Positions 3,301 to 57,234 of a stretch of DNA of 64,000 nucleotides are shown here, piece after piece. Each line of letters begins with the position of its first letter. The first letter of the stretch is position 1. A program made the translations under genes and the position numbers. Under the pieces are notes generated by a model that did not search any database, was not told the origin of the DNA, and saw only the letters and a program-made list of their open reading frames with translations. Source of the DNA: Staphylococcus phage LY01; the sequence record OR836606.1; one strand, given 5' to 3'.

Positions 3301-3449
3301 CTGTATTAGTACAATACAGATAAGACTATATCTTCTAATGTAATATATTTAGTCGTTGAACAACTTGTATTAAGTTGATGCTGATTAATCTAATAAGATA
3401 CTTCCAGCAATTAATATTATTTAATGTGAGCATCAAGTTTACCCACCTT
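3301..3449 (-). mobile_element. mini group I intron (family copy, minus orientation) in beta-prime C gene
   Basis: On the minus strand it contains the family core TTAATTGCTGG / ATCAGCATCA / GTTCAACGACTAAATA / GATATAGTCT plus a P9 hairpin (ctgtattgtactaatacag). It is flanked by coding sequence that aligns to beta-prime. Confidence 0.6.
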
Positions 3450-3461
3450 CTTGAGTCATTT

Positions 3462-3636
3462 ATGTTAACTATATTAAAATAATACAGATCAGACTATATC
3501 AAAAACTCTATATGAGCTTAATTATATTTAGTCGTTGAACACTATTTTTAGTGATGCTGATTAACTTAATAAAGGATCTCAGCAATTAATAATTTTTCGT
3601 ATATTATATTACTATAATAAAGGGCATTCATATACC
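3462..3636 (-). mobile_element. mini group I intron (family copy, minus orientation) in beta-prime C gene
   Basis: Same P/Q/R/S core elements as the other copies. The 5' leader aatgccctttattatagtaatataatatacgaaaaat is shared with the copies at 10056 and 10669. About 12-17 nt of exon (atgactcaagaaggtgg) separates it from the intron at 3301-3449. Confidence 0.6.
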
Positions 3637-6560: not shown

Positions 6561-6803
6561 CAGTCCACTTTTATAGCAATATGAAAGTAAAAAGAATATT
6601 AATTGCTGAAACGGTTTTATTAAATTAATCAGCATCAATTATTATTAATTGTTCAACGACTAAATATATTCACTCTTATTGAGAGTATGATATAGTCTGT
6701 GCTCTAAATTGATAATTTAGAGATTGTATAAAATACAGATAAAAAATTCATATCAGAATTTCTCTTAACATATTTTTATAATATGATTAGGAGGTGAAAT
6801 TAA

Positions 6804-8006: not shown

Positions 8007-8180
8007 TTAATTTCACAAAATAAAAGATATGAGAGTCGCCTGCGGTCAGCGGGAGACGATAAACGGGTGATAAGCTAATGTCTGATTAGCTTTACAAGGA
8101 GTACAGAGGTACCTCTATACGTTAGTCACTGAGCCAAGTGTATTTTATACAAGATCTTGCCTTTAGATTTAATTATTTAA
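8007..8180 (+). ncRNA. putative omega-RNA / IStron right end
   Basis: A GC-enriched segment with several hairpins (gtcgcctgcggtcagcgggagac...) lies immediately 3' of tnpB. This is atypical for a genome at about 25% GC and sits where TnpB guide-RNA scaffolds are encoded. Confidence 0.45.
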
Positions 8181-8189
8181 AATCAAGAT

Positions 8190-9556: not shown

Positions 9557-9725
9557 GCCCTTAATTACAGTAATGTAATTCAATGAAAATTTATTAATTG
9601 CTAAAAATCTTTATTAAGATGATCAGCATCACTAAAAATAGTGTTCAACGACTAAATATAAATTCACTTATTATAAGTGTAAGATATAGTCTAATCTGTA
9701 TTAGATTATTATAGAATAATACAAA
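9557..9725 (+). mobile_element. mini group I intron in beta gene
   Basis: Family core elements; P8 hairpin cacttattataagtg; P9 ctgtattag...taataca. The exon ends ...AAGGT and the next exon begins after ...ACAAATG. Confidence 0.65.
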
Positions 9726-9885
9726 TGAGGTATTGTCAGACAACTTTCATATGATACACAAATTAAATCTACTCGTGGTTATACTGATGGTAGTAAAAAA
9801 GATGTAAGTGATACAGCTTTATACACACCATTAGAATTATTAAATCCATATACTAGTAGACATGCGGATATACGAAATGAGGTAA
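9726..9885 (+). CDS. rpoB: RNAP beta subunit exon 3 (about 50 codons)
   Basis: (G)IVRQLSYDTQIKSTRGY...LNPYTSRHADIRNE aligns to E. coli INSLSVYAQTNEYGFL...IPFLEHDDANRAL. Confidence 0.55.
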
Positions 9886-10031
9886 GTTCGCAATAAAATT
9901 ATTTAATTGCTGGAAAGCTTTATTAAGTTAATCAGCATCAGTTAAAGACTGTTCAACGACTAAATAATAATTACCATTTATATGGTGAAGATATAGTCTA
10001 ATCTATATTAATTTAATATAGAATAATAAAA
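9886..10031 (+). mobile_element. mini group I intron in beta gene (shortest copy; 5' leader GTAAGTTCGCAATAAAATTAT)
   Basis: Family core; P8 hairpin accatttatatggt; P9 ctatattaatttaatatag. Confidence 0.6.
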
Positions 10032-10055
10032 ATGTCACCTCGTATAGGAATGACT
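10032..10055 (+). CDS. rpoB: RNAP beta subunit micro-exon (about 8 codons, SPRIGMTG)
   Basis: Lies between two introns. With the flanking exons it reads HADIRNE-SPRIGMTG-TQAKHLIATKTNDRPLVGSG, which aligns to E. coli [30 protein letters not shown]. Confidence 0.45.
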
Positions 10056-10238
10056 GGTATTAAAATGAATGCCCTTTATTATAGTAATATAATATACGAA
10101 AAATATTTAATTGCTAAGAATCTTTAATTAAAGAAATTAGCATCAAATTAATACAATTTGTTCAACGACTAAATAATATTATACTTATTTAAGTATTTGA
10201 TATAGTCTGATCTGTATTAAATTAATACAGTTAACATA
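10056..10238 (+). mobile_element. mini group I intron in beta gene
   Basis: Begins after the exon ...ACTGGT and ends ...ACATAAATG. P5 stem shows covariation (GCTAA/TTAGC here versus GCTGG/TCAGC in other copies). P8 is atacttatttaagtat. Confidence 0.65.
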
Positions 10239-10668
10239 AATGACTCAAGCTAAGCATTTAATTGCTACTAAAACAAATGACCGTCCATTAGTTGGTTCCG
10301 GTGTAGATAAATCTTTAGCCTACCAAATTTCAGACACATTTGCTTTTAAAGCTAAAGAAGATGGAAAAGTAACTTCTATTAATGAGAAAACAGGATTAAT
10401 GATTGTTGAATATATTAATGGAGATAAAGATGTAATTGATATATCTGAAAAACTTGCTAAAAACTCTAATGGCGGATTTTATCAAAATAATAAACTTACA
10501 CCGCAATTTGAAGTAGGTAAGAAATTTAATAAAGGACAAATATTAGCTAAAAATGATAATTACTTTGCAGGTTCTGGTAGTAATAATGATATTCAATTCA
10601 CTGCTGGTAAATTATCTAAAGTTGCAGTAGCTAGCTCATATGGTATTATAAATGCCTTTCATTATAGT
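10239..10668 (+). CDS. rpoB: RNAP beta subunit exon 5
   Basis: TQAKHLIATKTNDRPLVGSGVDKSLAYQ...GKVTSINEKTGLMIVEY aligns to E. coli [29 protein letters not shown]. The exon ends ...VAVASSYG, aligning to VAFMPWNG. Confidence 0.65.
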
Positions 10669-10828
10669 AATATAATGTATAAAAAATATTTAATTGCTGG
10701 AAAGTCTTTATTAAGACAATCAGCATCATTAATTTATAATGTTCAACGACTAAATAATATTATACTTAATTAATATGTATTTGATATAGTCTAATCTGTA
10801 TTGATTAACTCTTAATGCAGTTAATATA
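10669..10828 (+). mobile_element. mini group I intron in beta gene
   Basis: Inserted between WNG|Y-NFED codons (exon ...TCATATGGT | intron ... ATAAATG | ACTTATGAGGAC). Family core elements present. Confidence 0.65.
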
Positions 10829-11591
10829 AATGACTTATGAGGACAGTTCTATTATTTCTAATAGTATGTCTGAAGCTATGTCAACTAAAGTTACTATGAA
10901 GAAAACAGTAAATTTAGCTTCCAATACGAATATTCAATATATTGTAAAAGAAGGTCAAAATGTACGTACAGGAGACCCATTAATGATATTTGAGAATTCA
11001 TTTGATGATGAAGGTATCGGTTCTTTATTAGATAAAATTGGATCTGAATTTGAACAAGAAATCCAAGATATTTCTAATAGAGCTGTTAGATCTAAATATA
11101 CAGGCGTAATTAAGAAAGTAAATATCTATTATAATGATGATATTGAAAATATGTCTCCTACATTAGCTAAATTGGTTAATAGTTATATTAATAAATCTAA
11201 GAATAAATATAAAGAATATAAAAATGCAGTTAAAGGTAACAAATCTACATTACCTGGATTAGATGTAGATATTCCTGCAGTTGAAAAAATCAATAATGAA
11301 AAAATTAAAGGTGAAAAAGTTGATGGTGTTCTTATTGAAATCTTTACAGAATATGAAGATGATATGAGTATCGGTGATAAGATTAGTTTCTATGGGGCGT
11401 GTAAAACGGTCATTGCTGACGTTACTCCACCTGACGAATCCCCTTATGCAGAATATAGACCTGATGAAGAAATTGAAGCTATATTCTCTCCATTAAGTAT
11501 CGTGTCTCGTATGACTACAGATATATATCTCATGTTGTTTACCAATAAAGCACTCATAGAGCTTAAGAGAAAAGTTAAAGATATGCTTTAA
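10829..11591 (+). CDS. rpoB: RNAP beta subunit C-terminal exon
   Basis: TYEDSSIISNS aligns to E. coli YNFEDSILVSE. MSIGDKISFYGACKTVIADVTPPDESPY...EAIFSPLSIVSRMTTDIYLMLF aligns to GDKMAGRHGNKGVISKI...[20 protein letters not shown]. Confidence 0.75.
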
Positions 11592-16776: not shown

Positions 16777-17862
16777 ATGGCAGAAAACAATGAAATTTTA
16801 ATAACTGTTCCTCATAAAACATATATACCTAATAAAGGAATGGGACCAATAAATAAACCTTTTTATGTTGACAAAGATATTTTAAAATTATATGACTTAA
16901 TGAATATACAATATAAGAGAATAACCGATTATGATTATACAGATATAAATGAAGATGGAAAATATGAAGTTAAAGAAATCAAATCAGTGGAAGATTATAT
17001 TGAACAGAAGTATTTACAAGTTAATGAAATATTTAAACAAATAAAAATTATGTCTAATGATAGTGAAAATATTAATAGAGAAATAGAAGATAAATTTGAA
17101 AAAGTTAAAAAGAACTTAATTAACGCTGACAGTCTTGATGCATATTTGAGCGATCTTGATAAATTTAAATATGATATAGAAGATAAAAAACTAGATCTCC
17201 AAACTGAAAAAGAAAATGTAATTTCAACAATAGAAGATATGAATAATAAATTGGATAGTGTGAAAGAAACTTTATCTGATTTTGAAAATGTAAGAGAACA
17301 ATTCAATAGTAATTATAACAACACAATGAGTCTTAATGATGAAATGCAGAACTTAAGTGAAACTGCAAACTATATTAAGAGCATGGTAAATGATGTAGCT
17401 AATGTAGAAAAAAAATTAAATCTTATAAAAGATAAAACTGCAGAATTAGAATTATCACAGGAATCATTTAACAATAGTATAAGTGATTTTGAAAATAAAT
17501 TATTAGATTATAAAGAGAATCTTAAAAATTATATGATAGAAAATGCTGAAATGTATAAAGGTGAACCAGGCAAACAAGGACCAAAAGGAGAACCTTTCAA
17601 ATATTCTGATTTCACTCCAGAACAATTAAAGGAATTAAAAGGAGAACCTTTCAAATATTCTGATTTCACATCAGAACAATTAGAAGAATTAAAAGGAGAA
17701 TCTTTTGAATATTCTGATTTTACTCAAGATCAATTAGAGCTATTAAAAGGTGAAAAAGGTGATAAAGGAGATTCAGTTCCTCCTAAAGTATTTACCAAAG
17801 AAGAATATGAAAATTTACCAAATAAAGATCCAAATACTCTATACTTTATAAGTGAGGGATAA
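16777..17862 (+). CDS. tail fibre-like protein with coiled coil and collagen-like/tandem repeats
   Basis: Coiled-coil heptads; GEPGKQGPKGEP followed by three tandem repeats of about 20 aa (FKYSDFTPEQLKELKGEP), then GEKGDKGD; C-terminal ...DPNTLYFISEG. Confidence 0.5.
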   Translation: MAENNEILITVPHKTYIPNKGMGPINKPFYVDKDILKLYDLMNIQYKRITDYDYTDINEDGKYEVKEIKSVEDYIEQKYLQVNEIFKQIKIMSNDSENINREIEDKFEKVKKNLINADSLDAYLSDLDKFKYDIEDKKLDLQTEKENVISTIEDMNNKLDSVKETLSDFENVREQFNSNYNNTMSLNDEMQNLSETANYIKSMVNDVANVEKKLNLIKDKTAELELSQESFNNSISDFENKLLDYKENLKNYMIENAEMYKGEPGKQGPKGEPFKYSDFTPEQLKELKGEPFKYSDFTSEQLEELKGESFEYSDFTQDQLELLKGEKGDKGDSVPPKVFTKEEYENLPNKDPNTLYFISEG

Positions 17863-17867
17863 TTAAT

Positions 17868-18578
17868 ATGATTAATATAGGAAAACAAACAATCCCTTTT
17901 TTGTATAAAGGAAATAATCTTTTATACCCAAGTATAACAAAAGAAAATTTAGTATTGTATTTGGATTTTAAACAATTAACCGGTAAAAGAATTAATAATC
18001 GTCAAATGAAAGATTTGACTTTAAATAATAATATAACATTCAATAATTTCCCAATTTATCCAAATAATTTAATAATGGATTCTATCAAGCTTGACGGAAT
18101 TGATGATTATATCCTTAGTGATGCTAAAGTTGGCGGAAAATCTTTCACCTTACTTCAAAGTCTAGAGATTGTTAGTGATAAAGAACAACAGTTTTTCCAC
18201 TGTTTTAACAATCCTTCTTTTTATATGAGAAAATATCGAAATTTATTACAGTGCTCAGTTAATTATGGGACGCAGACATTAATAACTGCAAATGATATTT
18301 TTCTAGAATTTCCTAAAAAAATTTTTATAGGTTACTCATTCGATTATGAAAAGAAAGAAATAAAACTAATAATTAATGGAAATATTGTTGATAGTAGAAT
18401 TATCACTATCACGTCAAATGTTGATTTAACATTAACTAACATAGGACAGTATTACACTCCTAGTAAAACATATAATTTTGATGGTAATCTTTGTTCTATT
18501 TCATTGTATGATAGAGCTTTAACTAATGAAGAAATAATGAAAAATTATTTAGTGGATAAAGAAAGATGGGGTGTTTAA
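17868..18578 (+). CDS. LamG/concanavalin-like domain protein (paralog 1)
   Basis: N-terminus GKQTIPFLYKGNNLLYP is paralogous to the next ORF; C-terminal LamG-like region (IINGNIVDS...). Start overlaps the preceding stop. Confidence 0.45.
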   Translation: MINIGKQTIPFLYKGNNLLYPSITKENLVLYLDFKQLTGKRINNRQMKDLTLNNNITFNNFPIYPNNLIMDSIKLDGIDDYILSDAKVGGKSFTLLQSLEIVSDKEQQFFHCFNNPSFYMRKYRNLLQCSVNYGTQTLITANDIFLEFPKKIFIGYSFDYEKKEIKLIINGNIVDSRIITITSNVDLTLTNIGQYYTPSKTYNFDGNLCSISLYDRALTNEEIMKNYLVDKERWGV

Positions 18579-19406
18579 GTGAGTATAATAAGAATGGGTG
18601 ACAAATCTATTGCCTTTGTATATAAAGGTAATGATTTAATTTATCCAAATCCTATTGAAGATGGTTTAATATTATGGTATGATTTTGCGGGAATGAAAAA
18701 TGATAGTGTTAATAAAAATATTACAAAAGATTTAACTAAAAACACAAATGAAAGTGCTAAACACTTTAATTTTTTATACAATTCTCAAAGCGGTTATAAT
18801 AAGGGAATAAAGTTTGATGGCATTGATGATGAAATTATTCCAATGATAAAATATAAAGACGATATAACACGACAGCTAGATATGAAAAAAATAAATAATG
18901 GTCAAATCTTTTCAATTGAAATGACATTAAAAATGTCAGATAAGATTATAGACAAAGGATCAGAAATATTTATGACTGACAAAACATATGGTAGGTTCTG
19001 GTTACAATTTTTGAAAGATAATAACTATACAGAGACTGATGAGTTTGTTATATCTGCTTCAACATATTATGGAAATGAGGGTGGAAGAAATACTTCTGCC
19101 TTTAGCATAAAAGAATCATATAAATACGGAGATGAATTTCATTTAATTACTACATTAGATAAAAATGATAAAATCGTATTATATGTAAATGGAATAAAAA
19201 AAGATGAAAAAACTTTAGGTGACATTGCAATTACGACACCTCAGGAGGAAGAACTTTTAGTTTATATAGGTCAAGGAGATTCAAGTACGTATTATCGTAG
19301 ATTTGATCATGAAATATACTCAATGAAAATATATGACAAGGTTCTTACTGAAGAAGAAGTTAAACATAATTATGAATTGGAAAAAGTAAGATGGGAGTTA
19401 GAATAA
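18579..19406 (+). CDS. LamG/concanavalin-like domain protein (paralog 2), possible receptor-binding protein
   Basis: GDKSIAFVYKGNDLIYPNP; HLITTLDKNDKIVLYVNGIKKDEKTLGD is typical of the laminin-G/ConA-like fold. Confidence 0.5.
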   Translation: MSIIRMGDKSIAFVYKGNDLIYPNPIEDGLILWYDFAGMKNDSVNKNITKDLTKNTNESAKHFNFLYNSQSGYNKGIKFDGIDDEIIPMIKYKDDITRQLDMKKINNGQIFSIEMTLKMSDKIIDKGSEIFMTDKTYGRFWLQFLKDNNYTETDEFVISASTYYGNEGGRNTSAFSIKESYKYGDEFHLITTLDKNDKIVLYVNGIKKDEKTLGDIAITTPQEEELLVYIGQGDSSTYYRRFDHEIYSMKIYDKVLTEEEVKHNYELEKVRWELE

Positions 19407-19520
19407 TAATCTAAATAATGAACTATCTTTTTTGATTATTATGACTTACTCAAGAAAAATAGATATATGATAGATTGTTGCTATTAAATATTATAGATTA
19501 GAAAAAGAAAGAAGTGATAT

Positions 19521-19745
19521 TTGATGAAATTTGTTATTGCAAATATAGAATTATTTGAGAGAATGGGATACAATACTAAATATTGGAGAAAATCAATAGA
19601 TGGTAATAAAACTATTTGTCATTTAGAATATGCTGAGATTTTAGATAACGGAATTCAAGAAGAACCAGATACTTTAGTTGTTGATGCAGCTGAAGCTCAA
19701 GATATTATGAATTCTGAAGAATGGACTAGTAAAGAAGAAGAATAA
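19521..19745 (+). CDS. hypothetical small acidic protein
   Basis: 74 aa ORF upstream of the lysin genes. No transmembrane segment, so not an obvious holin. Confidence 0.35.
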   Translation: MMKFVIANIELFERMGYNTKYWRKSIDGNKTICHLEYAEILDNGIQEEPDTLVVDAAEAQDIMNSEEWTSKEEE

Positions 19746-19787
19746 AAACAAGTAAATATAATAAAAATAATTGGAGGAATTTTAATA

Positions 19788-36714: not shown

Positions 36715-37018
36715 ATTCCATGCAGTACATATGTCAGGCTTACTAATTTCATTAATATAATATAAGAAAGATTTAATTACTTGCATTTCTGTATCTAATT
36801 CATATATCTCAAATTCTAAACCTAAATTTTTACCAATTTCACTATTTTCATTATTATAAATTTCATTTAAGTTTTTAATTAATTTATCTTGATCTTCCAT
36901 AGTTTCTTTATAAGTGTCAGTGTCATATTTAAGAGCAAATGTTAATACTTTTTTCTTACTCCAATCCACTACAGTTATAATATTTATCTCTGCCTCAGCT
37001 TTAAGCGGGTCCGGGACA
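36715..37018 (-). CDS. DNA polymerase part 1, exon 2 (Exo II region)
   Basis: VPDPLKAEAEINIITVVDWSKKKVLTF aligns to T4 FPDPMKAEYEIDAITHYDSIDDRFYVF. PDICTAWN aligns to PAIFTGWN. Confidence 0.7.
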
Positions 37019-37151
37019 ATTTGTATTAAAAGTAATACAAATTAGACTATATCTTCTTAGTAATATATTTAGTCGTTGAACATTAAATTTTTAATGATGC
37101 TGATTATCTTAATAAAGAATTTCCAGCAATTAATATTATTTTATCTGAGCT
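37019..37151 (-). mobile_element. mini group I intron in DNA polymerase gene
   Basis: Family core. The junction ...TTAAAGGT | intron | CCCGGACCC restores LKVPDP in frame. About 133 nt, among the smallest copies. Confidence 0.6.
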
Positions 37152-37642
37152 ACCTTTAACCCAGTTACTTGAGATCCATCAACCTCAATATCGAATAGAC
37201 ATATATCTATACCAACTTTACTGTCTAAATTCTTTTTAATATACTCATTGATATTATAATCTTCTATATTTATATCAGAACCATGAGCATTATTTAATAA
37301 ATGGAAATCTTTTAGTTTTCTATATTCTTGCCAATTACCTGACTTCATAATTCTATCGTATTCTGCTTTATCTTGAGAATTACCAGCTTCTTTAACTACT
37401 GATTTGATAATATCTTTATGCTTACAAATAACAGTTCTTACTTTATCTTTTTCAATAGAACCTACAATTTTATTAGGAGGTAACCAATGTTCATCTTTAG
37501 TTACATAATAATGCATCATAGGATCTGTTATTTCCATATGTTTTTTAGTACCATCCTCTTCTTTAACTACCATTACTACTTTTTCTTTACCAGAAGCAGT
37601 TTCTTTTTTATTTAAATATGTTGATTTAATGAATCTTCCCAT
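37152..37642 (-). CDS. DNA polymerase part 1, exon 1 (N-terminus, Exo I motif)
   Basis: ICLFDIEVDGSQ aligns to T4 ANCDIEVTGDK (Exo I DxE). The annotated tail VAQIK* is intron read-through. Confidence 0.7.
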
Positions 37643-45915: not shown

Positions 45916-46695
45916 TTAAAATTCAGCTTTTTGATATAAGTTTCCGAATTCATCTTTAACTATATCATCTCTGCCCTCAACTTCTTCAAATACTAAATCT
46001 CTGGTCATGGTAAATAATTCTGGGTATTCTTCTTGAAGTTCATCTTCTTCAATAATATTCATATCCATATCAGCAACTACTAATTCATATTCTTCAGGAG
46101 AATCCCCTAAAACAAAGAATTGTAGTGAACCTTTATAGACTTTTAATATAGAAGATAAATCTTGTTGATCTAATTCATTAATTTCTTGACTCAATTCTTC
46201 TTTTCGATCCAATTCTTTATTAATAGATTTTTCTTCTTCATCCAATTGTAATAATTTTGCGTCTAATTCTTCTCTAAAATCATTGTCTTCATCATTTACT
46301 TCTTCAGGTTCCATCATACTGTCTAGAATGTCTTTATTAGACATTGTATTAAGTTGATTAAGTACATTCTTAGCAAGCTCTTTATAATTATCTTCTGATT
46401 CATCATCAATAGACATTTTCTGAGCTTTCATAGTTAAGTCTATAATATCTTTCTTAACATTTTTCATTTGCATAATAGTATCTTTAATTTCTTTCTCTAC
46501 ACTAATAATGTTAGCTTCCATATTAGATACAAATGTATGTTTAGGATATTTCAGATTCTTAGTTAGATCCATTATACGATGTTCTAATTGAACTTCTTTC
46601 TTTTCCATTTTATCCTTAAATTTTACTAGCATTTTATATTCTTCCATCATATCATTAATTTGTGATATCAAATCAATTTCAACATTATCGGACAT
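45916..46695 (-). CDS. hypothetical acidic coiled-coil protein
   Basis: 259 aa ORF. Confidence 0.4.
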   Translation of the reverse strand: MSDNVEIDLISQINDMMEEYKMLVKFKDKMEKKEVQLEHRIMDLTKNLKYPKHTFVSNMEANIISVEKEIKDTIMQMKNVKKDIIDLTMKAQKMSIDDESEDNYKELAKNVLNQLNTMSNKDILDSMMEPEEVNDEDNDFREELDAKLLQLDEEEKSINKELDRKEELSQEINELDQQDLSSILKVYKGSLQFFVLGDSPEEYELVVADMDMNIIEEDELQEEYPELFTMTRDLVFEEVEGRDDIVKDEFGNLYQKAEF

Positions 46696-46751
46696 TTATT
46701 TTTTCAACTCACTTCCATCATATTAATTAATATAAAAGAAAGTTAATTAAA

Positions 46752-47390
46752 TTATTTAAAATTTTCTTTAACCGCTAACTTTTTTATTTCTTTTTCATCT
46801 TCTACCTTTTCTAAAATCTCATAAAGTTCATTAAAAGTATATTCATTTAAAATTAAATCTTTTCTAAATTCTTGACTGGTTATGAAATCGACATTATCTT
46901 TTTTTGAATTAACTGTGTATACTAATAAACTTATATCTTTTTCGTTATTAAAAAGATTAACTATATTTGAAATTAATTCGTATTCTATATTATTTATATT
47001 TTCAATTTGAATATAAGTTACATATGAAAATACATTACCGCTAATTAAAGTTTTAAAAGGTCCTATATTTTTACATTCTTTATCAATATTACGTAATAAT
47101 GAAAATACAAAATATAATTCAAAACAACCATTACCTTTATCAGTTATATCTATATAAAAACCTCTAGTTCTATAATAGGTATTTTTGTCCTTTATCAAAA
47201 TACCATCATTTCTTAACGAAAATGAGCCATTTTCATCTATCTTATTTTTAATATTGTTAGAATTAAATAACTCTTTAAATAATTCAATATTTAATTCTTC
47301 TTTACTAGTATCTTTTTTAACGGAAACTATGTCACCTCTATCATCAATCTTATAAAAATCATGATTTTTGATATATTGATTTATACTCAT
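46752..47390 (-). CDS. NNFK-tail paralog family member
   Basis: C-terminus LYEILEKVEDEKEIKKLAVKENFK. Confidence 0.55.
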   Translation of the reverse strand: MSINQYIKNHDFYKIDDRGDIVSVKKDTSKEELNIELFKELFNSNNIKNKIDENGSFSLRNDGILIKDKNTYYRTRGFYIDITDKGNGCFELYFVFSLLRNIDKECKNIGPFKTLISGNVFSYVTYIQIENINNIEYELISNIVNLFNNEKDISLLVYTVNSKKDNVDFITSQEFRKDLILNEYTFNELYEILEKVEDEKEIKKLAVKENFK

Positions 47391-47406
47391 TAAGTTATTC
47401 TCCTTT

Positions 47407-48015
47407 TTATTTAAAGTTTTCTTTAGTTAGATATTTTTTAATTTCTTTTTCGTCTTCTAACTCTCTAAAATATGCATGAGGTTCAAATATATCAATACCA
47501 TTTATAAAGATTTTAATATTTCCATTATTTTCTTCTTTAAGCATTTCATCTAGCAAATTAGATAATTTATCTAAATCATTTTCATGTTCATCATAACCTA
47601 TAATATTTTCTTTATGAAAATTTTTCATCATGATTATACTGACACCGAGTGAATTCTTATCAACTTCTAAAAGTTCTTTATCCGCATGTCTACTAATAAA
47701 AGCCCTTAATTGCAAAGTTACTTTATTATCTTTAATTTTTGCATATGAGAATTCTAAGAATTCTACTGGAAGATTCTTTCTAACTTCATTATACATATTG
47801 CTGAAATATATATTTTCACTATCAATTAATTCAAAGAGTAAACTTAGATTATAATAAAGGTCATCATTTAAACTATAGTAATCTAAATTTCTTTCTATTA
47901 ATTTTTTATAATAGAGTTTATTTATCTTATCTTTAATATCACTTTCATCTTTACTAATTATAAAAAGCTCATTAATATCTTTATTATAATAGAATTTATT
48001 TTCTTTTAAAATCAT
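47407..48015 (-). CDS. NNFK-tail paralog family member
   Basis: C-terminus YFRELEDEKEIKKYLTKENFK. Confidence 0.55.
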   Translation of the reverse strand: MILKENKFYYNKDINELFIISKDESDIKDKINKLYYKKLIERNLDYYSLNDDLYYNLSLLFELIDSENIYFSNMYNEVRKNLPVEFLEFSYAKIKDNKVTLQLRAFISRHADKELLEVDKNSLGVSIIMMKNFHKENIIGYDEHENDLDKLSNLLDEMLKEENNGNIKIFINGIDIFEPHAYFRELEDEKEIKKYLTKENFK

Positions 48016-48120
48016 ATCTTTTCCACTCCCTTAATTAGATTAATATAGAGATAATGAATTAATATAATTCATTATCTCATTTTTATAATATATATTTACA
48101 TACATTTTTCATCTAAATAA

Positions 48121-48165
48121 AAGAGATAACGGACAATTATAGTCCGTTATCTCATCTTTTTAAAT
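48121..48165 (-). terminator. rho-independent terminator of the beta-prime N gene
   Basis: On the minus strand: gagataacggactataattgtccgttatctc hairpin followed by a T-run, directly after the TAA stop. Confidence 0.55.
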
Positions 48166-48198
48166 TTATTCTTTAGTTAAAGAGTATAAAGCTTGTAC
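48166..48198 (-). CDS. rpoC: RNAP beta-prime N gene, last exon (VQALYSLTKE*)
   Basis: Joined to the previous exon it gives ...NESNMLVQALYSLTKE, aligning to E. coli ...PSQDVVLGLYYMTRD. Confidence 0.5.
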   Translation of the reverse strand, partial: VQALYSLTKE

Positions 48199-48327
48199 CA
48201 TATTATTTATGATAATTAGACTATATCTTCTTAGTAATATATTTAGTCGTTGAACAACTTATATTAAGTTGATGCTGATTAATCTAATAAGATACTTCCA
48301 GCAATTAATATTATTTATTGAGAGCAT
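48199..48327 (-). mobile_element. mini group I intron (minus orientation)
   Basis: Family core elements; 3' end ...ATAAATAATATG. Confidence 0.55.
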
Positions 48328-48461
48328 ACAAGCATGTTACTCTCATTACCCAAATTACGTACTGAATTACCAGTGTAGTTTAGGTAGTTAGTTTTCTTAT
48401 TAAGAAGTTTATTAGCTTCTTTATTAGCCTCTACAGTCCAGAGAGATCTGATAGAAATCAT
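48328..48461 (-). CDS. rpoC: RNAP beta-prime N gene exon (DMISIRSLWTVEANKEANKLL...)
   Basis: D-MISIRSLWTVEANKEANKLLNKKTNYLNYTGNSV aligns to E. coli [36 protein letters not shown]. Confidence 0.6.
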
Positions 48462-48621
48462 ATCCATTTACGTTATCTATATTAAGATAATATAGATCAG
48501 ACTATATCTTTACTTTAATAAGCATATTATATTTAGTCGTTGAACACTATTTGTAGTGATGCTGATTAAGATAATAATCTTTCCCAGCAATTAATAATAT
48601 TTAAATACGGCAATATAAATT
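48462..48621 (-). mobile_element. mini group I intron (minus orientation)
   Basis: Family core; 5' end GGT|AATTTATATTGCC..., 3' end ...AACGTAAATG|GATATG. Confidence 0.6.
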
Positions 48622-48630
48622 ACCGTCAAA
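48622..48630 (-). CDS. rpoC: 9-nt micro-exon TTTGACGGT (Phe-Asp-Gly of the catalytic NADFDGD loop)
   Basis: The splice model gccgaT | intron | TTTGACGGT | intron | GATATGATTTCT reads ...LGADFDGDMISIRSL, reconstituting the universally conserved ADFDGD. No other junction choice gives the motif. Confidence 0.5.
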
Positions 48631-48811
48631 CGTTTATGTTATCTATAATAAATGATATCATAGACCAGACTATATCATCATCTCAATTGAGATATATTAT
48701 ATTTAGTCGTTGAACAACTTATATGAAGCTGATGCTGATTGCTCTAATAAGAGTTTTCAGCAATTAATAATATTTTCATTCTTAAATCACTTTAAGAAGC
48801 GACTTTTTCAA
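48631..48811 (-). mobile_element. mini group I intron (minus orientation)
   Basis: Family core. Its 5' leader GTCGCTTCTTAAAGTGATTTAAGAATGAAAATATTATTAATTGCT is shared with the copy at 49393-49550. Confidence 0.6.
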
Positions 48812-48825
48812 ATCGGCACCTAACG
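48812..48825 (-). CDS. rpoC: 14-nt micro-exon (..LGAD) of beta-prime N gene
   Basis: cgttaggtgccgat lies between the large intron and the next mini intron and supplies G-A-D of GADFDGD. Confidence 0.4.
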
Positions 48826-49200
48826 CTATTTAATTTATAATTAAATTTGGACTATATCATAAACCTAAATATTAGGTTCCCTCACACTTCGGGAATTCAT
48901 TTCCCTACTCTACTCACTTCGTTATAGTATTTCAACTATACTTATTCTCTATATAAGAGTTACATTTATTGTTTTCGATAGTCTCTGAACGTTTATCCAT
49001 CATGTGGATACTTCGCTGCTAGACTTTCCCATTATTAAATACCCTTAGCATTTTCAGCATAGGTCATCAAAGAGATTTTTTCTGTCTTTCGACTGCATGT
49101 CACGCTATCCATTACTGGCATACGTTGTAGCTCTCTAAGCATTAGGGTTTACAAGCAATTCATAAGGTATTTTTTATCCTATATTACTATAAGACTGGAG
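48826..49200 (-). mobile_element. larger group I intron (about 370 nt, no ORF), same R/S core with expanded peripheral domains
   Basis: The minus-strand reading contains GAATTGCTTGTAAAC (P), GTTCAGAGACTATCGAAAAC (R-like) and GATATAGTC (S). It is about 80% identical to the segment at 56265-56640. The 5' boundary is uncertain (about 49190-49215). Confidence 0.55.
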
Positions 49201-49392
49201 CGTAAGTTACTCCGGCATAACTGTTGTGTATAATAGCGGTATCTATAAATACATCTTCATCAACAGGATATTCATGAACAACTTTAGGATAATCTTTAAG
49301 TACAATATCGTCTAAAGTAATTTCAGGAATTGTATCAACTGTAGTCAATATTTTAATTTTGGCAGGTGCAACATTCAAGAAATTTTCGCAAA
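49201..49392 (-). CDS. rpoC: RNAP beta-prime N gene exon
   Basis: (C)ENFLNVAPAKIKILTTVD...NSYAG; follows region ...HVVYSRYPINTLV, which aligns to E. coli EHPVLLNRAPTLHRL. Confidence 0.45.
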
Positions 49393-49550
49393 CTATATTA
49401 AATTAATACAGATCAGACTATATCATTACCTACTTTTAGGTATATTATATTTAGTCGTTGAACAAGTTTAATTGACTTGATGCTAATTAACCTATTAAAG
49501 TCTTTTAGCAATTAATAATATTTTCATTCTTAAATCACTTTAAGAAGCGA
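49393..49550 (-). mobile_element. mini group I intron (minus orientation)
   Basis: Family core elements; 3' end ...TTTAATATAG. Confidence 0.6.
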
Positions 49551-50712
49551 CCAGTGTATTAATCGGATATCTTGAATAAACCACATGCTTATCTTCACAT
49601 ATTTCTGTAGCAGCTATATAAAGTAAATCAATTACAGTAAAAGTTCTACCTAAAGTATTTTCAAATAATTTAACTTTATGACGTTTACCTTGTCTATCAT
49701 TTACATATATAGGACTAAATCTTTCATTAGGATCCTTAATAAAGAATTCTAACATATTCTTAATAGCTTTATCATCAAACTGTTCATATACTTCTTCTAA
49801 TGATAATTCATTTTCATCAGTTCCAGTAGCGGTTTGGAAGGCATCTTTGTGGATTTCAATAAAATCGATAATGTATTTGCTAAAGAAAGGTAAGAATAAA
49901 GTAACTAATTGAGTTAATGGTACCCCTAACTGACCAAATTCAATTTGCATTTCATCCCATTTATTTGAATTAATCTTAGGTGAAGAAATAACTGAGCGAG
50001 TACTGTTATCTACCGTCTTACCTAAAATATTTCTTTGCATCATACCAGTTTTACCTGATAGTTCTCCTGAAGTTAATTTAACGTATATTTCAAATAATTT
50101 ATTTTGAATATTATATTTAGTCGTATTAGCTACAAAGTCAAATGAATTAAAACTAATTGAATCTACAGATCTTAAGATGCTTGCATACATATCATTTATT
50201 TCTTCAGTATCTTGAATTTCCCCTGAAGTTTCATTAGGATTAAAGTCACGATAGAAAGCAGGTATTACGAGCCATTTATCTGTGAATATTCTATCTTTAG
50301 GAGTATTTTTAAGCATATCAATTTTTTCATTTCGGATACGAGAATCATTTTTTCTAAATTTAAGATTTTCATAATTATCGTATAAGAAATTTAATCCAGT
50401 TTCACCATTTTCATCTGGAACTAATTGTCCTTTCTCAATTTTAAAGTAATCAGAACCTTGAATACATAGATCTATATTCTTATCTAATTCTCTCATAGCT
50501 TTATAAGCTACAGGATTCAAGTATTTGCCACCTAAATTAATCCAACCTATATTATTCTTTCTTTCATCAGTACCTATTAAACCAAATATTTCATATGAAA
50601 ATAAACCATCTTCTTTAGGTAAAGTTCCTGAATCAAAGAAAATAGGATTAGTAACTTCTTTAGCTCCATAAGCTGTAATAACTTGATCAACATTAACCAT
50701 ATCTATTTTCAT
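49551..50712 (-). CDS. rpoC: RNAP beta-prime subunit N-terminal exon
   Basis: LPKEDGLFSYEIFGL aligns to E. coli KPERDGLFCARIFGP. GWINLGGKYLNPVAY aligns to GHIELASPTAHIWF. WLVIPAFYRDF aligns to WMILTVLPVLPPDLRP. NILGKTVDNSTRSVISSPKI aligns to [21 protein letters not shown]. Confidence 0.75.
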
Positions 50713-50798
50713 TTAATACTTCACTTCCAATCTAATTTTATAAAAAAATAAATATATAAAAGCCATGTTAAGCTATAAACTTAACATGGCAATAATTA

Positions 50799-51551
50799 TT
50801 AATTAACTAAGCTGTTACTCATATAACTAAAATAATTTAAATCTATTTCTTTTTCTTTAGCTTTCATAATAGTTGCTTCATCTAATTTTTGATTATATCC
50901 TAATGAAGGAATATCAATACCGGTCTGCATAACATTATCACAGTTCATTATAATATCTTTAATATTACTAACCTCGTCTTCATATATTCTAGTAACATAC
51001 CCTAATGTGTTAATTACATCTGATTTCTTTTCATCTGATTCAAGATAATAAATATCAACCTTTTCCATACTTCCCCTAAATAAAGTTTTTAAAAATCTTT
51101 CTTTAGATTTTAAGTTATTGTCAGAAGTCTTAGTTACAATTGACAATTTATTCATTAAAGGAGTATTAATTGTATATGACAAACTTTTAGCTAGATTTGT
51201 TGGCTGTAATGTATCGTATAAATCTTTTTTAAATACAATTTCTTCGTGAAGTTTATTTCTAGCTTCATTAACTTCATCTTCAGAAAATCTTTCATAAACA
51301 TCTTTTCTCACTAACCATTGGTCAATATAATATTCAGGACGATTGAGAACTGTATTGTAATGAGTGCTATAATTATAATCTGGAGATAGTCTGAAAAATT
51401 GATTGTAATAATCAAAATCTTCATGCATTAATTGAACAATTTTAGGTGAAATATTCACTAAAACTTCATCGCAATCAACAACTATATGACCTGTATTCAT
51501 TTCGTTCTCTTTATACATATAATTAAAATTCTCCTTTGTCATAATCTTCAA
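50799..51551 (-). CDS. hypothetical protein, possibly HAD-like 5'(3')-deoxyribonucleotidase
   Basis: N-terminal GHIVVDCDEVLVN resembles the DxDxV motif I of HAD nucleotidases. The call is weak. Confidence 0.3.
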   Translation of the reverse strand: MKIMTKENFNYMYKENEMNTGHIVVDCDEVLVNISPKIVQLMHEDFDYYNQFFRLSPDYNYSTHYNTVLNRPEYYIDQWLVRKDVYERFSEDEVNEARNKLHEEIVFKKDLYDTLQPTNLAKSLSYTINTPLMNKLSIVTKTSDNNLKSKERFLKTLFRGSMEKVDIYYLESDEKKSDVINTLGYVTRIYEDEVSNIKDIIMNCDNVMQTGIDIPSLGYNQKLDEATIMKAKEKEIDLNYFSYMSNSLVN

Positions 51552-52863
51552 TGAATCTATTTTTTAATTCTTTTATTTTATCTTCATGAAATTTAGTTTG
51601 TCTAATTTTAAAAGGTTTAGTGCTGTCAAGAAAATCTGTTGAATGAATATTTTCTTCATCAACTAAAGTCATATATTTAGGATTAGTTGTATTTAGTGCA
51701 TCATATAAATCAAATTTATTCTTTTTCATAAGATTGTATTTATCTTGAGTCATTAAAACTGAATAATAAATATCCTTTAATTTAACTGATCTTCTGTAAT
51801 TAGAAGGATCTTGTAAACCAGGTGTTTCTTTAGTATTAGTTATAATTCCTTTACCATGATACTCCTTACCAATATAATAAACTAAATAAATGAACCCCAT
51901 ATTATCTTTAACGCTAAATAATCTATATCCATCTTTATTTTCATCAAATACCTCATAAATATTCCAATCATTAATTACTCTACGCTTAGCATAATAGGGT
52001 CTATTTTCTGGTTTTAAATGATATGGTTGTCCTCCAATACTAAGTCGTTTCTCATATTCTTCTTTTTCAAGTTGTTTAATATAAGTTTTACTAAATTTAT
52101 CCAAAACAATTGAATGTTCTTCATCAAAACTTTCATAATTATAATTAAAAGGTAATACAATCCTAAAAGTTTTACTTGTACATCTATATAAAACTTTACT
52201 TAGATTTTTTTCATTTAATTTAATTTGGATTTCATTAGTTTCTTCATTATAATTAATATCTTCATCATTTATAGAATATAGACTTTTAGTAATTACATTA
52301 AATGTAATTGGATTAACGTCTTCAATCATATTAATAATGATTAAATTTCTTTCATAATCTATATATGCTAACATGTTATACATATCTAAGTTAAGTGAAT
52401 CAGGGTCATACTTATCCTTTGTTTTATGAGGATCTCTAGCCCATACCTCTAATTCTCCCGCATTTTTAATTTTTAATTTAGAATTATCTTTTAATGTGAT
52501 ATCTTTAAGAAAATCTTTACCAATATGATTTCTACCAATCTCATTTAATAATATTGCTAGTTGATGTTCAAATAACTTAGGTATATCTTTCTCTAAAGTA
52601 AAGAAATAACAATCATTATTAAAATTATTTTTATTGCTTTTACGATATTCCTTTAATAAATCAACTAACTCTTTATCTTCATTAAATCGAATAATATTAT
52701 CAATAATAAATCTATTTTGATCAAATCTATAGAACCATGTCCCATTATCATCCATTTTTCTTAACTTAGCCGGTATTTTTCTACCATTTTTTCTGTATAA
52801 ATTCAAATTTTTACTAAATACATCTGACTGTTTTGCCATAGCATTAATACACTCCATTTTCAT
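51523..52863 (-). CDS. hypothetical protein
   Basis: 446 aa ORF. Confidence 0.4.
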   Translation of the reverse strand: MKMECINAMAKQSDVFSKNLNLYRKNGRKIPAKLRKMDDNGTWFYRFDQNRFIIDNIIRFNEDKELVDLLKEYRKSNKNNFNNDCYFFTLEKDIPKLFEHQLAILLNEIGRNHIGKDFLKDITLKDNSKLKIKNAGELEVWARDPHKTKDKYDPDSLNLDMYNMLAYIDYERNLIIINMIEDVNPITFNVITKSLYSINDEDINYNEETNEIQIKLNEKNLSKVLYRCTSKTFRIVLPFNYNYESFDEEHSIVLDKFSKTYIKQLEKEEYEKRLSIGGQPYHLKPENRPYYAKRRVINDWNIYEVFDENKDGYRLFSVKDNMGFIYLVYYIGKEYHGKGIITNTKETPGLQDPSNYRRSVKLKDIYYSVLMTQDKYNLMKKNKFDLYDALNTTNPKYMTLVDEENIHSTDFLDSTKPFKIRQTKFHEDKIKELKNRFIEDYDKGEF

Positions 52864-53050
52864 TTATTTAAAAATGTATCTTAAAAAAGATACATTTCTA
52901 TTACAATTTTATAATATATATTTTAACATAAATTAAAAATTTATGCAAGAAATTTTATATGAAAGTTGATAAATTTTTCTAATTATATAAAATCAATTAT
53001 TTTATCTGAATACATACCAATATTTTCCAATATGTATCCAGATAAATTAT

Positions 53051-54161: not shown

Positions 54162-54315
54162 CATTTATGTTAGCTGTATCAAATATAATACAGATCAGAC
54201 TATATCTTCTTTAGAAATATATTTAGTCGTTGAACTTAATTTCTTAAGCTGCTGATTTGATTAATAAATCATTCCAGCAATTAATATTTTTTATTGACAG
54301 CAATTTTTTATCACA
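54162..54315 (-). mobile_element. mini group I intron inserted right after polymerase motif C (DTDS|)
   Basis: Family core elements. Read-through tail ...NCWNDLLIKSAA of the upstream ORF is intron-encoded; the same tail occurs on ORF 53844..54164. Confidence 0.6.
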
Positions 54316-54888
54316 ACTGTCAGTATCTATAGTTAATACGCTTCTACGTTTCTTGTAATTCATTCTATACATTCTATTATAATCTTGATAATTATATATA
54401 ACCCAATCTTTTAATATTTCAAATAATTCATCTAATAATGGAATCATATCTTCAGGAGGATCATTTGGATCTAAGAAATCTTCTCTGCCAGTCATTTTAC
54501 TAATTTTATTATCAAATATATCGGTATGATCAATTAACCCAAATAAATTATTTTTGAAATATACTTTATTTTTATCTTCTTGACTTAATTTACTAAATAC
54601 TTCTTCTAACTTAAGAAAATCTTCTTCACTATAATCTTCTTCAACATTAGAAACTAAACCTTCTAAAATTTCTTTATCAGTTGGAATTGATTTTATCTTA
54701 ATATCATGATCTTCATATTTTTCACTAATTATTCTTAATATATAATGATATATTTCATCAATCTTCATGAAAAAGATTTTACCGCCAATAAATCTTTCTA
54801 AAGCTATCGCTGAAGTAGTTACAATATCAACTGCTATATAAATTCGTGAATTTAATTTAATTAATTCGAATTTATTCGACTTCGTCAT
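54316..54888 (-). CDS. DNA polymerase part 2 exon containing motif C (LTIDTDS)
   Basis: RSVLTIDTDS aligns to T4 gp43 FIAAGDTDS. The true 5' end of the exon is the IStron 3' splice site near 54889 and is not determined. Confidence 0.55.
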
Positions 54889-55030
54889 TACTTTTACTTA
54901 CTTTGCACTTTAAGTTTTTCGTTATAAACTACTTCAACATAAAGTGTCAACCAAAGCAGAGGTTAAAGCTCTTAAGTCATCACATTTGGACATTCAAGAG
55001 AATTTAAATCTAGTTAGCCTGCCCAACAAA
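54889..55030 (-). ncRNA. putative omega-RNA / IStron right end of TnpB-2
   Basis: GC-enriched segment ...gctgctgtcaacctcaaaatgtacggtaagcgttttgttgggcaggctaac... overlaps the tnpB 3' end and extends beyond it. Confidence 0.4.
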
Positions 55031-56158
55031 ACGCTTACCGTACATTTTGAGGTTGACAGCAGCGTTATAATCTCTATCCATTTTATTTCCACAATCACAC
55101 TTATACCATCTATCTGATAACTTCATCTTATTTTCTTTAGTTAAGACTTGACCACAATTAGAACATAATTGAGTTGATGGGAACCATCTATCTGCTACAA
55201 TAATAGTATTACCATTGCTTTCAGCTTTTTGTTTTAATAAAGTTCTGAATTGTCTCCAATTCATTGCAGAAATAGATTTAGACAAATTTCTATTTTTAAT
55301 CATATTTGAAACTTTAAGATCTTCAATTGTAATATACTGATAATTTTTAATTAAGTTAGTAGTTATTTTATGAAGATAATCTTTTTTAATGTTATTAATT
55401 CTCATCCATATTTTTTGTATTTTGGTTTTCAATACATTGTATTTGTTAGAACCATAAACTTTACGAGATAATCTTTTTTGATAGTACTTAATCTTATTGT
55501 ATAGTGGAATCAATTTATCATTTAATGAATGATATTTCTTAAATTTACCGAAATCATCATTAATGATAGCTAAATCTTTTACACCTAAATCAATACCAAC
55601 ATGGCTATTGTTATGAATTAAGCTCTTATTATTATCAACTTTCATTACTATTGAAGCGAAATATTTTCCAGCATATTTAGATATAGTAACTTCTTGAATG
55701 GAATTATAATTAAACGGGATAGATTCTTTCATTTTAATTAATGAATTAATTCCTTGAAGTTTTAATTTATTATTTTTATCGCCTTTAATTTGTAATGAAT
55801 AATTATTCTTCTTATAGAACCTTGTACTTAATTTAGAATGTTTTTTAGATTTAAATCTCGGATACTTACCGTAACCTTTCCACATCATATTAAAAGCTTT
55901 ACCTAAATCTTCAGTTGCTGTGTCCATAACTTGAGATATTTGATCTTTTTCCCAATCTTCTTTACATTTTTTAAGTTCATCACGAACTTTCCTATGTGTT
56001 GGTTTTGGAAGAGATGTATCAAGTTGATGAGCATTCCACATTTGTTTCCATTTATTAAGCCCTTTATTATAAATATATCTAGAATATCCAAATGCTTGAT
56101 TAAATACTTCTTTTTGTTCTTTATTTGGTTTCAATTCGATTTTAATAGATTTGTACAT
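55010..56158 (-). CDS. tnpB: TnpB (IS200/IS605 OrfB-family RNA-guided nuclease), no TnpA
   Basis: MYKSIKIELKPNKEQKEVF (N-terminal HTH); RuvC-I VGIDLGVKDLA; RuvC-II ITIEDLK; Zn-finger CSNCGQ...CDCGN; RuvC-III DRDYNAAVNL. Confidence 0.85.
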   Translation of the reverse strand: MYKSIKIELKPNKEQKEVFNQAFGYSRYIYNKGLNKWKQMWNAHQLDTSLPKPTHRKVRDELKKCKEDWEKDQISQVMDTATEDLGKAFNMMWKGYGKYPRFKSKKHSKLSTRFYKKNNYSLQIKGDKNNKLKLQGINSLIKMKESIPFNYNSIQEVTISKYAGKYFASIVMKVDNNKSLIHNNSHVGIDLGVKDLAIINDDFGKFKKYHSLNDKLIPLYNKIKYYQKRLSRKVYGSNKYNVLKTKIQKIWMRINNIKKDYLHKITTNLIKNYQYITIEDLKVSNMIKNRNLSKSISAMNWRQFRTLLKQKAESNGNTIIVADRWFPSTQLCSNCGQVLTKENKMKLSDRWYKCDCGNKMDRDYNAAVNLKMYGKRFVGQAN

Positions 56159-56724
56159 GTGATTTCACCTCCTTCAAATATATAATATATACTTAAAGTT
56201 AGTGATGAATTTTAATTAAATTAAACTCACGAATTCCTGATTTAGTGTTTCCACATCAGTTAAATAGCAAGACTATATCATATTCTATCAGAATGATAGA
56301 ACCCTCGCACTTCAGGAATATTATTTCCCTACTCTACTCACTTCACATAGTATTTCAACTATGCTTATTCAGGCGTTAATCCTGTGCTTTCGATAGTCGT
56401 TGAACGTTCATCCATCATGTGGATGCTTCGCTGCTAGATTTTCCATTAGTCCACCCTTAGCACTTAATTTACATTAAGCTTTTATTTCAGCCTAGGTAAT
56501 CTTAGAGTATTTTTTCTGATTTTCATCTGCTTTCACGCTATCCATTACTGGTATACGTTGTAGCTCTCTAAGCTTTAGGAGTTTACAAGCAATTCACGAG
56601 GTTTGCTCACTTCTTTCATGAATTAAACTAACTTTAATTCACTATGAAGTAAGGGAGTTTTGATTAACTATTTTAAAATAATTTAAGTGAGCAATTCGTG
56701 TTAAATCACTTAAATTATATTAAA

Positions 56725-57234
56725 CTAAAATAGTTTCTTTTCTCCACTATAAGTAGTTGCTGGACCTGAATTAGCATCATAGAATGTACTATTTTTCTGT
56801 ATCATAGCACCGTAATAACTGTTAGCTAAGATCTTAATTGTTTTTTGTTCATTCATATATTTATCATGTAAAACATCATCTTTACCTTTATAAATAAACA
56901 TATTGTGCTTAGCTACTTTACGAGAATCTATAAAGTCTTTTAACATTTCCGCATTTAAATTTTTTCTTTGTGATTGAGGCTGATAAATAGAACCAGAACC
57001 AGTTACAATTAAATTATTATTAATAATTTGTCTTAAGGTTGTATCTACATTCATTTTTTGTCCTGATATTTCTATTAAAGCTGGATCTAAATGTTTTTTA
57101 ATATATTCTCTACAGGCATTAATTAGTTTCTCATCATCAATATCAGGTTTTCTTATTTTAATTAATTTAATTAAATTTTCTAAATAACCCGTTATAGCCC
57201 TTTTACGTTCATATTTATTATCTTGATTAGACAT
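56725..57234 (-). CDS. DNA polymerase part 2, first exon (starts with its own Met; polymerase motif B)
   Basis: QKTIKILANSYYGAM aligns to T4 gp43 motif B KILINSLYGALG. GPATTYSGEK aligns to ATAITIFGQ. N-terminus NKYERKRAI aligns to T4 QRKDWKKKM just after the part-1 split point. Confidence 0.65.
   Translation of the reverse strand: MSNQDNKYERKRAITGYLENLIKLIKIRKPDIDDEKLINACREYIKKHLDPALIEISGQKMNVDTTLRQIINNNLIVTGSGSIYQPQSQRKNLNAEMLKDFIDSRKVAKHNMFIYKGKDDVLHDKYMNEQKTIKILANSYYGAMIQKNSTFYDANSGPATTYSGEKKLF

Follow-up and report, generated by a model that had tools for sequence, protein, structure and literature searches.

The RNA polymerase genes of MarsHill-like phages were reported by Korn et al. 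to be split by introns, with exon numbers and boundaries that vary and that were predicted by protein alignment (10.1101/2020.12.14.422802), and in the jumbo phage PhiPA3 a group I intron adjoins the codons of conserved acidic residues in gp210, which encodes an RNA polymerase beta subunit (PMC11620839). Very short exons beside self-splicing introns are known from mitochondrial cox1 genes, either as a 1-nucleotide (nt) exon between two group IB introns in placozoans, supported by RNA-seq (PMC5436844), or as a 3-nt exon next to group I introns in Agaricus bisporus (PMC2987802). The 64,000-nt stretch of Staphylococcus phage LY01 (OR836606.1) analysed here, called the window throughout, contains on its minus strand a gene for the N-terminal beta-prime subunit of RNA polymerase that has very probably been invaded five times by group I introns (I1 to I5, Table 1), three of them within 23 coding bases around the Mg-binding loop, where they would leave exons of 14 nt and 9 nt. 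The phage group and the gene are the same as in the AR9-like/MarsHill-like phages already described, and introns of the same family lie at the DFDG/D and C-terminal sites in MarsHill and Machias, but these relatives have no introns at the sites of I2 and I3, and their annotations include no exon under about 100 nt in the beta-prime gene. PhiPA3 differs as a nucleus-forming phage whose gp210, a beta-subunit gene, is split by one intron alone; this intron carries an HNH homing endonuclease, and its role in phage competition was shown experimentally. The mitochondrial cox1 exons are likewise very short, lie between self-splicing introns and are needed for a conserved residue, but they belong to organelle genes with large introns (>1 kb in Agaricus) and are shorter than 9 nt, whereas the window presents, in a bacterial virus, introns of 157-384 nt around two micro-exons in a row. 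The gene orf142 of the Staphylococcus phage Twort reportedly (Landthaler and Shub, 1999) contains three closely spaced group I introns with exon skipping between neighbouring ribozymes; it resembles the present gene in these respects but belongs to another phage family, is another gene and has introns of ordinary size. A search of open-access texts found no phage for which a micro-exon is reported. The mitochondrial exons are shorter and therefore the 9-nt exon is no record; the preliminary description of this DNA, in counting it among the shortest exons known for self-splicing introns, made a claim of near-record length that fails outside viruses and bacteria. The arrangement in the beta-prime gene carries a known phenomenon to an extreme and does not make a new kind of system.

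By megablast, positions 46000-52000 of the window are 89% identical to MarsHill, 90.6% to S6 and 93.6% to PALS_2, with no identical record among the matches, which places its source among the AR9-like Staphylococcus jumbo (giant) phages; euglenoid-plastid introns and introns of groups II and III, considered on account of AT-richness, were dropped after this placement. The orthologs in S6, PALS_2 and SA1 are single open frames of 1512 nt with no intron, reading ...YAGALGADFDGDMISIR, and the PALS_2 product ends in ...NSYAGALGADFDGDMISIRSLWTVEANKEANKLLNKKTNYLNYTGNSVRNLGNESVQALYSLTKE; the MarsHill ortholog is annotated as 'viral RNA polymerase beta-prime subunit', and notes in the Madawaska and Machias records specify the N-terminal part. 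Alignment of the PALS_2 coding sequence (CDS; its positions carry the prefix q) to the window by blastn gave four collinear blocks, leaving 23 nt (q1331-1353) without a placement, and these are filled exactly by the 14-nt and 9-nt exons with no change of amino acid. When the six exons in Table 1 are joined, the CDS is 1512 nt long and encodes 503 amino acids reading ...GALGADFDGDMISIR, with the segments ALGADFDGDMISIR and SYAGALGADFDGDMISIR across the micro-exon junctions of the predicted spliced product. The product is identical at 493 of 503 residues (98%) to PALS_2 and likewise to S6, all differences fall before residue 377, and the last 127 residues are unchanged; tblastn finds residues 452-493, encoded in exon 5, at 100% identity. 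Exon 4 is identical in sequence to S6, and the 23 micro-exon bases differ at 4 positions from S6 and at 7 from PALS_2, always synonymously. The DFDGD motif (residues 448-452) exists only in the spliced product, since none of the six frames of the unspliced 64-kb window encodes a contiguous D[FY]DGD. Skipping of exon 3 would shift the frame, and skipping of exon 4 would preserve it with loss of FDG.

The identification as beta-prime, already made in the preliminary description, was borne out by the alignment of residues 404-501 to residues 412-514 of Escherichia coli beta-prime (E 2e-4) and by the best matches in PDB, which are beta-prime chains (7s00/7s01, E 1e-11); thus the product has both similarity around the catalytic loop and the three-aspartate DFDGD motif, and it scores 25.0 bits against Pfam RNA_pol_Rpb1_2 (PF00623), just below the cut-off of 25.3. 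The spliced protein found only distant relatives in IMG/VR (27-32% identity), and an exact-product look-up of the unspliced open reading frame (ORF) returned no record. The same description had distributed the catalytic loop over three exons, one of them of 9 nt and preceded by another of 14 nt, and this arrangement holds with the positions that it gave for both micro-exons; the intron-free orthologs, the group I model matches and the guide-exon pairing all support it. It had ended the downstream intron 3 nt too far into exon 5, at 48462, where GATATGATTTCT begins at 48464, and it did not list I1 and I5.

Table 1. Features of the window, blastn blocks of the PALS_2 CDS, and intron sites of the beta-prime gene in relatives (q, PALS_2 CDS coordinates)
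Feature	Position	Strand	Length (nt)	Remarks
RNA polymerase beta-prime N-terminal subunit gene	48166..50712	minus		six exons, five group I introns; orthology
Exon 1	49562..50712	minus	1151	blastn q1-1152
I1, mini group I intron	49389..49561	minus	173	P2 hairpin; RF00028 39.9 bits, E 3e-08
Exon 2	49210..49388	minus	179	blastn q1153-1330
I2, larger group I intron	48826..49209	minus	384	different lineage; RF00028 27.2 bits, E 2e-4
Exon 3, micro-exon CGTTAGGTGCCGAT	48812..48825	minus	14	q1331-1344; completes Ala, then Leu Gly Ala Asp
I3, mini group I intron	48631..48811	minus	181	P2 hairpin; RF00028 54.6 bits, E 1e-12; ends ...AACAUAAACG
Exon 4, micro-exon TTTGACGGT	48622..48630	minus	9	q1345-1353; Phe-Asp-Gly of DFDGD
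I4, mini group I intron	48465..48621	minus	157	RF00028 43.4 bits, E 3e-09; ends ...AACGUAAAUG
Exon 5	48339..48464	minus	126	starts GATATGATTTCT (Asp-Met-Ile-Ser); blastn q1354-1475
I5, mini group I intron	48199..48338	minus	140	without P2, no visible P8; RF00028 30.9 bits, E 1.5e-05
Exon 6	48166..48198	minus	33	includes stop; blastn q1480-1512; ends ...VQALYSLTKE* as PALS_2
Large group I intron with TnpB	54831-56741	minus		insertion relative to S6; ORF 56158-55010 (382 aa); ribozyme of the type of I2
Large group I intron with TnpB	6552-8201	plus		insertion relative to S6; ORF 6804-8006 (400 aa); starts with mini-family ribozyme
Micro-exon ACTCAAGAAGGTGGGT, RNA polymerase beta gene	3441-3456	minus	16	between two mini introns
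Micro-exon TCACCTCGTATAGGAATGACTGGT, RNA polymerase beta gene	10035-10058	plus	24	between two mini introns
blastn block q1-1152	50712-49561	minus		94.7% identity
blastn block q1153-1330	49387-49210	minus		94.9% identity
blastn block q1354-1475	48464-48343	minus		
blastn block q1480-1512	48198-48166	minus		
Intron site	q1152			window (I1), Machias, PB50, AH12
Intron site	q1161			MarsHill, ORF-containing intron
Intron site	q1330			window only (I2), among GenBank phages
Intron site	q1338			AH12 only
Intron site	q1344			window only (I3), among GenBank phages
Intron site (DFDG/D)	q1353			window (I4), MarsHill, Machias, PB50, AH12: mini introns of two types; Madawaska: 1472-nt ORF-containing intron
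Intron site	q1478			window (I5), MarsHill, Machias, PB50, AH12

All five inserts match the RF00028 covariance model in a local search of 1.8 kb with E-value thresholds, and classical group I core elements (AAUUGCUGG, AAUCAGCA, GUUCAACGACUAAAU and GAUAUAGUC) are present among them. All five end in G (omega G). An in-frame stop lies 21-30 nt past each 5' splice site, ahead of the core; in phage group I introns such stops exclude ribosomes from the ribozyme. I1, I3, I4 and I5 belong to one family of mini introns, to which I2 does not belong: I2 has GUUCAGAGACUA and GAUAUAGUCC as its R and S core elements and 33% G+C, and its closest DNA relative is in the Listeria jumbo phage LPJP1 and not in Staphylococcus phages. 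The closest copy to I3 within the window is I1 (77% identical, with an identical guide); the two introns lie 192 coding bases apart and both use GUCG as guide and CCGAU as target. I2, I3 and I4 lie side by side, each with complete ends and a complete core, and they do not form a twintron because the bases between them are the coding bases demanded by the ortholog alignment. Placement of the splice sites by nucleotides alone against S6 was ambiguous, with exon bases near the introns recoded; the sites were settled by the rule of U at -1 and terminal G together with the reading frame, which shifts the boundary of exon 1 one base 5' of the end of its blastn block so that the exon ends in U, the intron in G, and the Ile codon is AUC.

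No other sequence-level evidence for use of the predicted splice sites is as strong as the complementarity between the guide of each intron and its own exons. I1 follows CGAU, which pairs with its guide GUCG. The P1 helix of I3 is CGAU·UU[GAAA]AA·GUCG and its P10 is UUU/AAA (3 bp), formed by three A that precede the guide G; that of I4 is ACGGU·AAU[UUAU]AUU·GCCGU, with a 3-bp extension, and its P10 joins GAUAUGA of exon 5 to UUAUAUU (7 bp); and I5 has a P1 of 7 bp (UGAGAGU/GCUCUCA) and a P10 of 8 bp. The continuous guide of I2, CUUACGCUCC (CUUACG|CUCC), makes 9 of 10 pairs with the ligated junction GGAG|CGUUAG, 5 of 6 in P10, and the junction is accepted because the guide pairs in this way with the junction obtained from the orthologs. 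A U stands at -1 of I1, I3, I4, I5 and ten other mini copies, with I2 as the exception, where the accepted junction lacks the U·G wobble. The usual U·G wobble sits one base inside I2; the TnpB-carrying paralog (56741 boundary) and the relative in Listeria phage LPJP1 (about 258-262) likewise follow ...GGAG. Mini copies pair with their own exons as in GACAGU/GCUGUC, GAGAGU/GCUCUC, UGGAAU/GUUCCA and ACGGU/GCCGU, and the pairing is copy-specific, since exons swapped among copies reached the observed total in 0 of 20000 permutations for P1 and in 0 of 20000 for P10. Synonymous recoding near the introns improves guide pairing, as in the changes of GCA to GCC (P1 of I3) and GCACUU to GCGUUA (P10 of I2). 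The minimum-energy fold of the segment from exon 3 through I4 consists of two separate modules, each with P1, P4-P6, P7/P8 and P9 (z = -4.4), and neither this fold nor the centroid fold contains a helix across the two introns.

Each intron would then fold alone into a group I core and exit by two transesterifications, with the splice sites set by a guide that forms P1 with the end of the 5' exon and P10 with the start of the 3' exon, and with the terminal G marking the 3' end. Within the 9-nt exon UUUGACGGU, UUU (bases 1-3) would serve as P10 for I3 and ACGGU (bases 5-9) as P1 for I4, and within the 14-nt exon CGUUAG would serve as P10 for I2 and CGAU as P1 for I3. The two pairings in each micro-exon do not overlap and therefore no special mechanism would be needed, nor the extremely precise double splicing that had been invoked for the 9-nt exon. 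The simplest course would be splicing in 5'-to-3' order during transcription; once I3 was gone, the substrate of I4 would be the one found in phage MarsHill. Homing could have brought the introns to the most conserved part of the gene, as could reverse splicing directed by their guides.

Among the close relatives compared in Table 1, four different points within 23 bases of the DFDGD codons carry insertions, and three different introns are found at one of these points. The Machias clade (Machias, PB50 and AH12) has the exon GAUGGC with the guide ACCAUC at the DFDG/D site, where the window has GACGGU with GCCGU, so that a C-G pair of the window corresponds to U-A in this clade, a compensatory change, and C opposite A stands where the window has the U·G wobble. 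The last exon base before the DFDG/D intron of this clade is thus a C that faces a guide A, and the extra intron of AH12 likewise follows a C facing A. In AH12 (OR455461, locus positions about 4033-4378) a 15-nt exon GCTGACTTTGATGGC, encoding ADFDG, lies between two mini group I introns around the same catalytic loop; it differs from the arrangement in the window in that there are two introns and not three, and the upstream one, at q1338 and not q1344, is of another subfamily with a 5' exon that ends in C opposite A. This 15-nt exon is unannotated, and the record has only separate 'hypothetical protein' fragments. For PB50, three separate 'beta-prime' CDS fragments are annotated, because of the same failure to recognise introns as in AH12. 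The joined CDS of MarsHill misses an intron of the 140-nt class (5410-5549) and runs 24 nt into it, to locus position 5433, with the read-through NMLVCSQ*, and the true last exon (5550-5582, ...VQALYSLTKE*) was overlooked. Exact-word scans for the I3/exon-4 junction found no match in viral contigs; four metagenome and six genome matches to the junction were chance 18-mers from unrelated organisms, without an intron core. The gene in the window is the most fragmented version seen, adding two insertions to those of its relatives.

Several points weigh against five functional introns. The support for splicing is comparative throughout; I2 and I3 were found at their sites in one sequence only; the 5' exon of I2 ends in G, which pairs with a C of the guide, and not in the near-universal U; and only I3 is above the Rfam gathering score of 50, with I4, I1, I5 and I2 all below it. 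A run of Rfam at gathering thresholds on the whole window matched no family, a null result that reflects the filter and not absence, because the local search with E-values detects the same introns. The introns have 23-33% G+C and the mini family is very small (140-188 nt), four of its members lacking the P8 hairpin, so that the introns cannot be counted on to self-splice unaided and may depend on factors of the host or the phage. The core strands P4, P7 and J8/7 are identical in I3 and I4, which makes cross-pairing and exon skipping conceivable. The low scores, the G at the end of the 5' exon of I2, the members without P8 and the occurrence of I2 and I3 in a single sequence would all suit a decaying or non-functional allele in which some or all of the introns no longer splice and the micro-exons are relics, but such decay is improbable for a gene in which the spliced frame is intact at 1512 nt, the last 127 residues are unchanged, the 23 micro-exon bases have changed only synonymously, every intron retains its guide-exon pairing, with improvement by synonymous recoding, and no other sequence in the window encodes DFDGD, the more so as the subunit is part of the RNA polymerase set on which AR9-like phages depend (10.1101/2020.12.14.422802). 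Exon skipping as a major outcome, by a hybrid of the 5' half of I3 and the 3' half of I4 or by attack of the 5' exon of I3 on the 3' splice site of I4, would exploit the identical core strands, drop FDG and give an in-frame product of 500 amino acids, ...GALGADDMISIR, with a possibly regulatory or poisoning function. It is given only a small chance: the minimum-energy and centroid folds confine every helix to its own intron; the partner of the I3 guide is UUU in the 9-nt exon, whereas skipping would require the guide to pair with GAUAUG, of which the first G and A face guide A and do not pair; and a polymerase minus one catalytic Asp would be dead, so that skipping as the main route should be selected against.

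An assembly artefact, in which repeated mini introns were mis-joined into a spurious tandem with short spacers, might be thought of for a repetitive family with 14 copies in 64 kb and common exact 15-mers, but it is hardly credible. The halves of I2, I3 and I4 are only 61-80% alike and I2 is of another lineage, the spacers are precisely the 14 and 9 coding bases needed, in frame, each guide fits its own spacer, the independent genome AH12 has a comparable 15-nt exon at the same loop, and the 16-nt and 24-nt micro-exons elsewhere in the window are equally exact. There is also little likelihood that both splice sites of I2 lie one base further 3', behind U 49209 and C 48825, which would produce a 13-nt exon and Val instead of Ala before LGADFDGD, with the exon 2-exon 3 junction GGAGUGUUA in place of GGAGCGUUA. 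Such splicing would allow the U·G wobble (intron U1/G9), by which the 5' splice site of a group I intron is usually marked, to form beside the GGAG/CUCC helix; but the intron would end in C and not G, Ala occupies the position in 8 of the 8 GenBank orthologs examined, a single uninterrupted 10-nt stretch of the guide is complementary to GGAG|CGUUAG, and the TnpB-carrying paralog likewise follows ...GGAG. Insertion of five group I introns that splice at the sites in Table 1 is the reading favoured by the sequence comparisons.

The mini family is represented in the window by 14 delimited introns of 140-188 nt without an ORF, all following U and all ending in G, and in the collinear comparison with S6, which has none, every copy is an insertion. 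The 15-mer GTTCAACGACTAAAT occurs 15 times exactly in the window, and 18 times with up to three mismatches where about 3 would be expected by chance. The genes that contain the family are two DNA polymerase genes, two RNA polymerase beta genes and the beta-prime gene, and each mini copy presumably works in an essential gene. Alignment of the 14 copies displays an invariant core, and RNAalifold gives P4, P5, P7 (GACUA/UAGUC) and P9 with compensatory changes at 9 of 24 pairs. Four members of 140-154 nt (48199-48338, 37017-37158, 3287-3440 and 54162-54315) lack P8 as well as P2, with nothing able to form a hairpin between P3' and the GAUAUAGUC element. A 2024 review (PMC10964413) gives 250-500 nt as the size of group I introns, and the four P8-less introns would lie far under this range if they splice. 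The default Rfam search of the 64 kb was null although at least 17 group I introns are present, and AT-rich mini introns are easily overlooked. One subfamily, with the guide GCC(C) followed by UUUAUUAUAGUAAUAUAAU, is always found after GGU (window 9548-10832 and 3287-3633), and for three of the four copies ACU follows the intron (Gly-Thr); the motifs are alike in two different beta-subunit genes, which suggests recognition of one target in paralogous genes. The 24-nt exon is strongly recoded relative to S6, from AGTCCGAGA to TCACCTCGT, which raises its pairing to the guide of the upstream intron. The segments 51579-53044, 17764-19758 and 1336-2710 have no collinear counterpart in S6 and are gene replacements or insertions between conserved blocks.

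IStrons (PMC10690162) combine a group I intron with an IS605/IS607 element that has TnpB, and the two large introns of the window in Table 1 resemble them in carrying TnpB: both ORFs match OrfB_IS605, Cas12f1-like TNB and HTH domains. These two introns have an IStron-like architecture and interrupt phage genes, one for a DNA polymerase and one for an RNA polymerase beta subunit; no TnpA gene was seen in either element. I1-I5 (140-384 nt), unlike IStrons, contain no ORF, and therefore they are at most derivatives of IStrons. The ORFs within the Madawaska and MarsHill beta-prime introns were tested as TnpB candidates and are not TnpB. It is rather doubtful, though conceivable, that no natural self-splicing group I ribozyme is smaller than these elements of 140-188 nt and that they are offshoots of phage IStrons, lacking TnpB, which multiply in the genome through guide-directed insertion; with three introns stacked inside the catalytic loop, production of the polymerase would then hang on ordered, possibly temperature-sensitive co-transcriptional splicing, and skipping would lead to a dead in-frame subunit.

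More notable than what the preliminary description raised are the size and abundance of the family, its P8-less members of 140 nt, the 5' exon of I2 that ends in G, and the TnpB-bearing relatives. The genes of AR9-like Staphylococcus phages cannot be called correctly without modelling of group I introns and micro-exons, and the consequences in GenBank are a fragmented subunit in AH12 and PB50 and a MarsHill record that runs into an intron. The very small introns (140-188 nt), with their varied guides and peripheral helices, form a natural series that can serve as a test set for the minimal requirements of the group I fold; the 14-nt and 9-nt exons directly probe the independence of adjacent ribozymes; and the mini introns together with the TnpB-bearing copies offer a system for asking how introns without an ORF spread. 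The clustering of insertion points around DFDGD shows a strong concentration of mobile introns on the most conserved codons.

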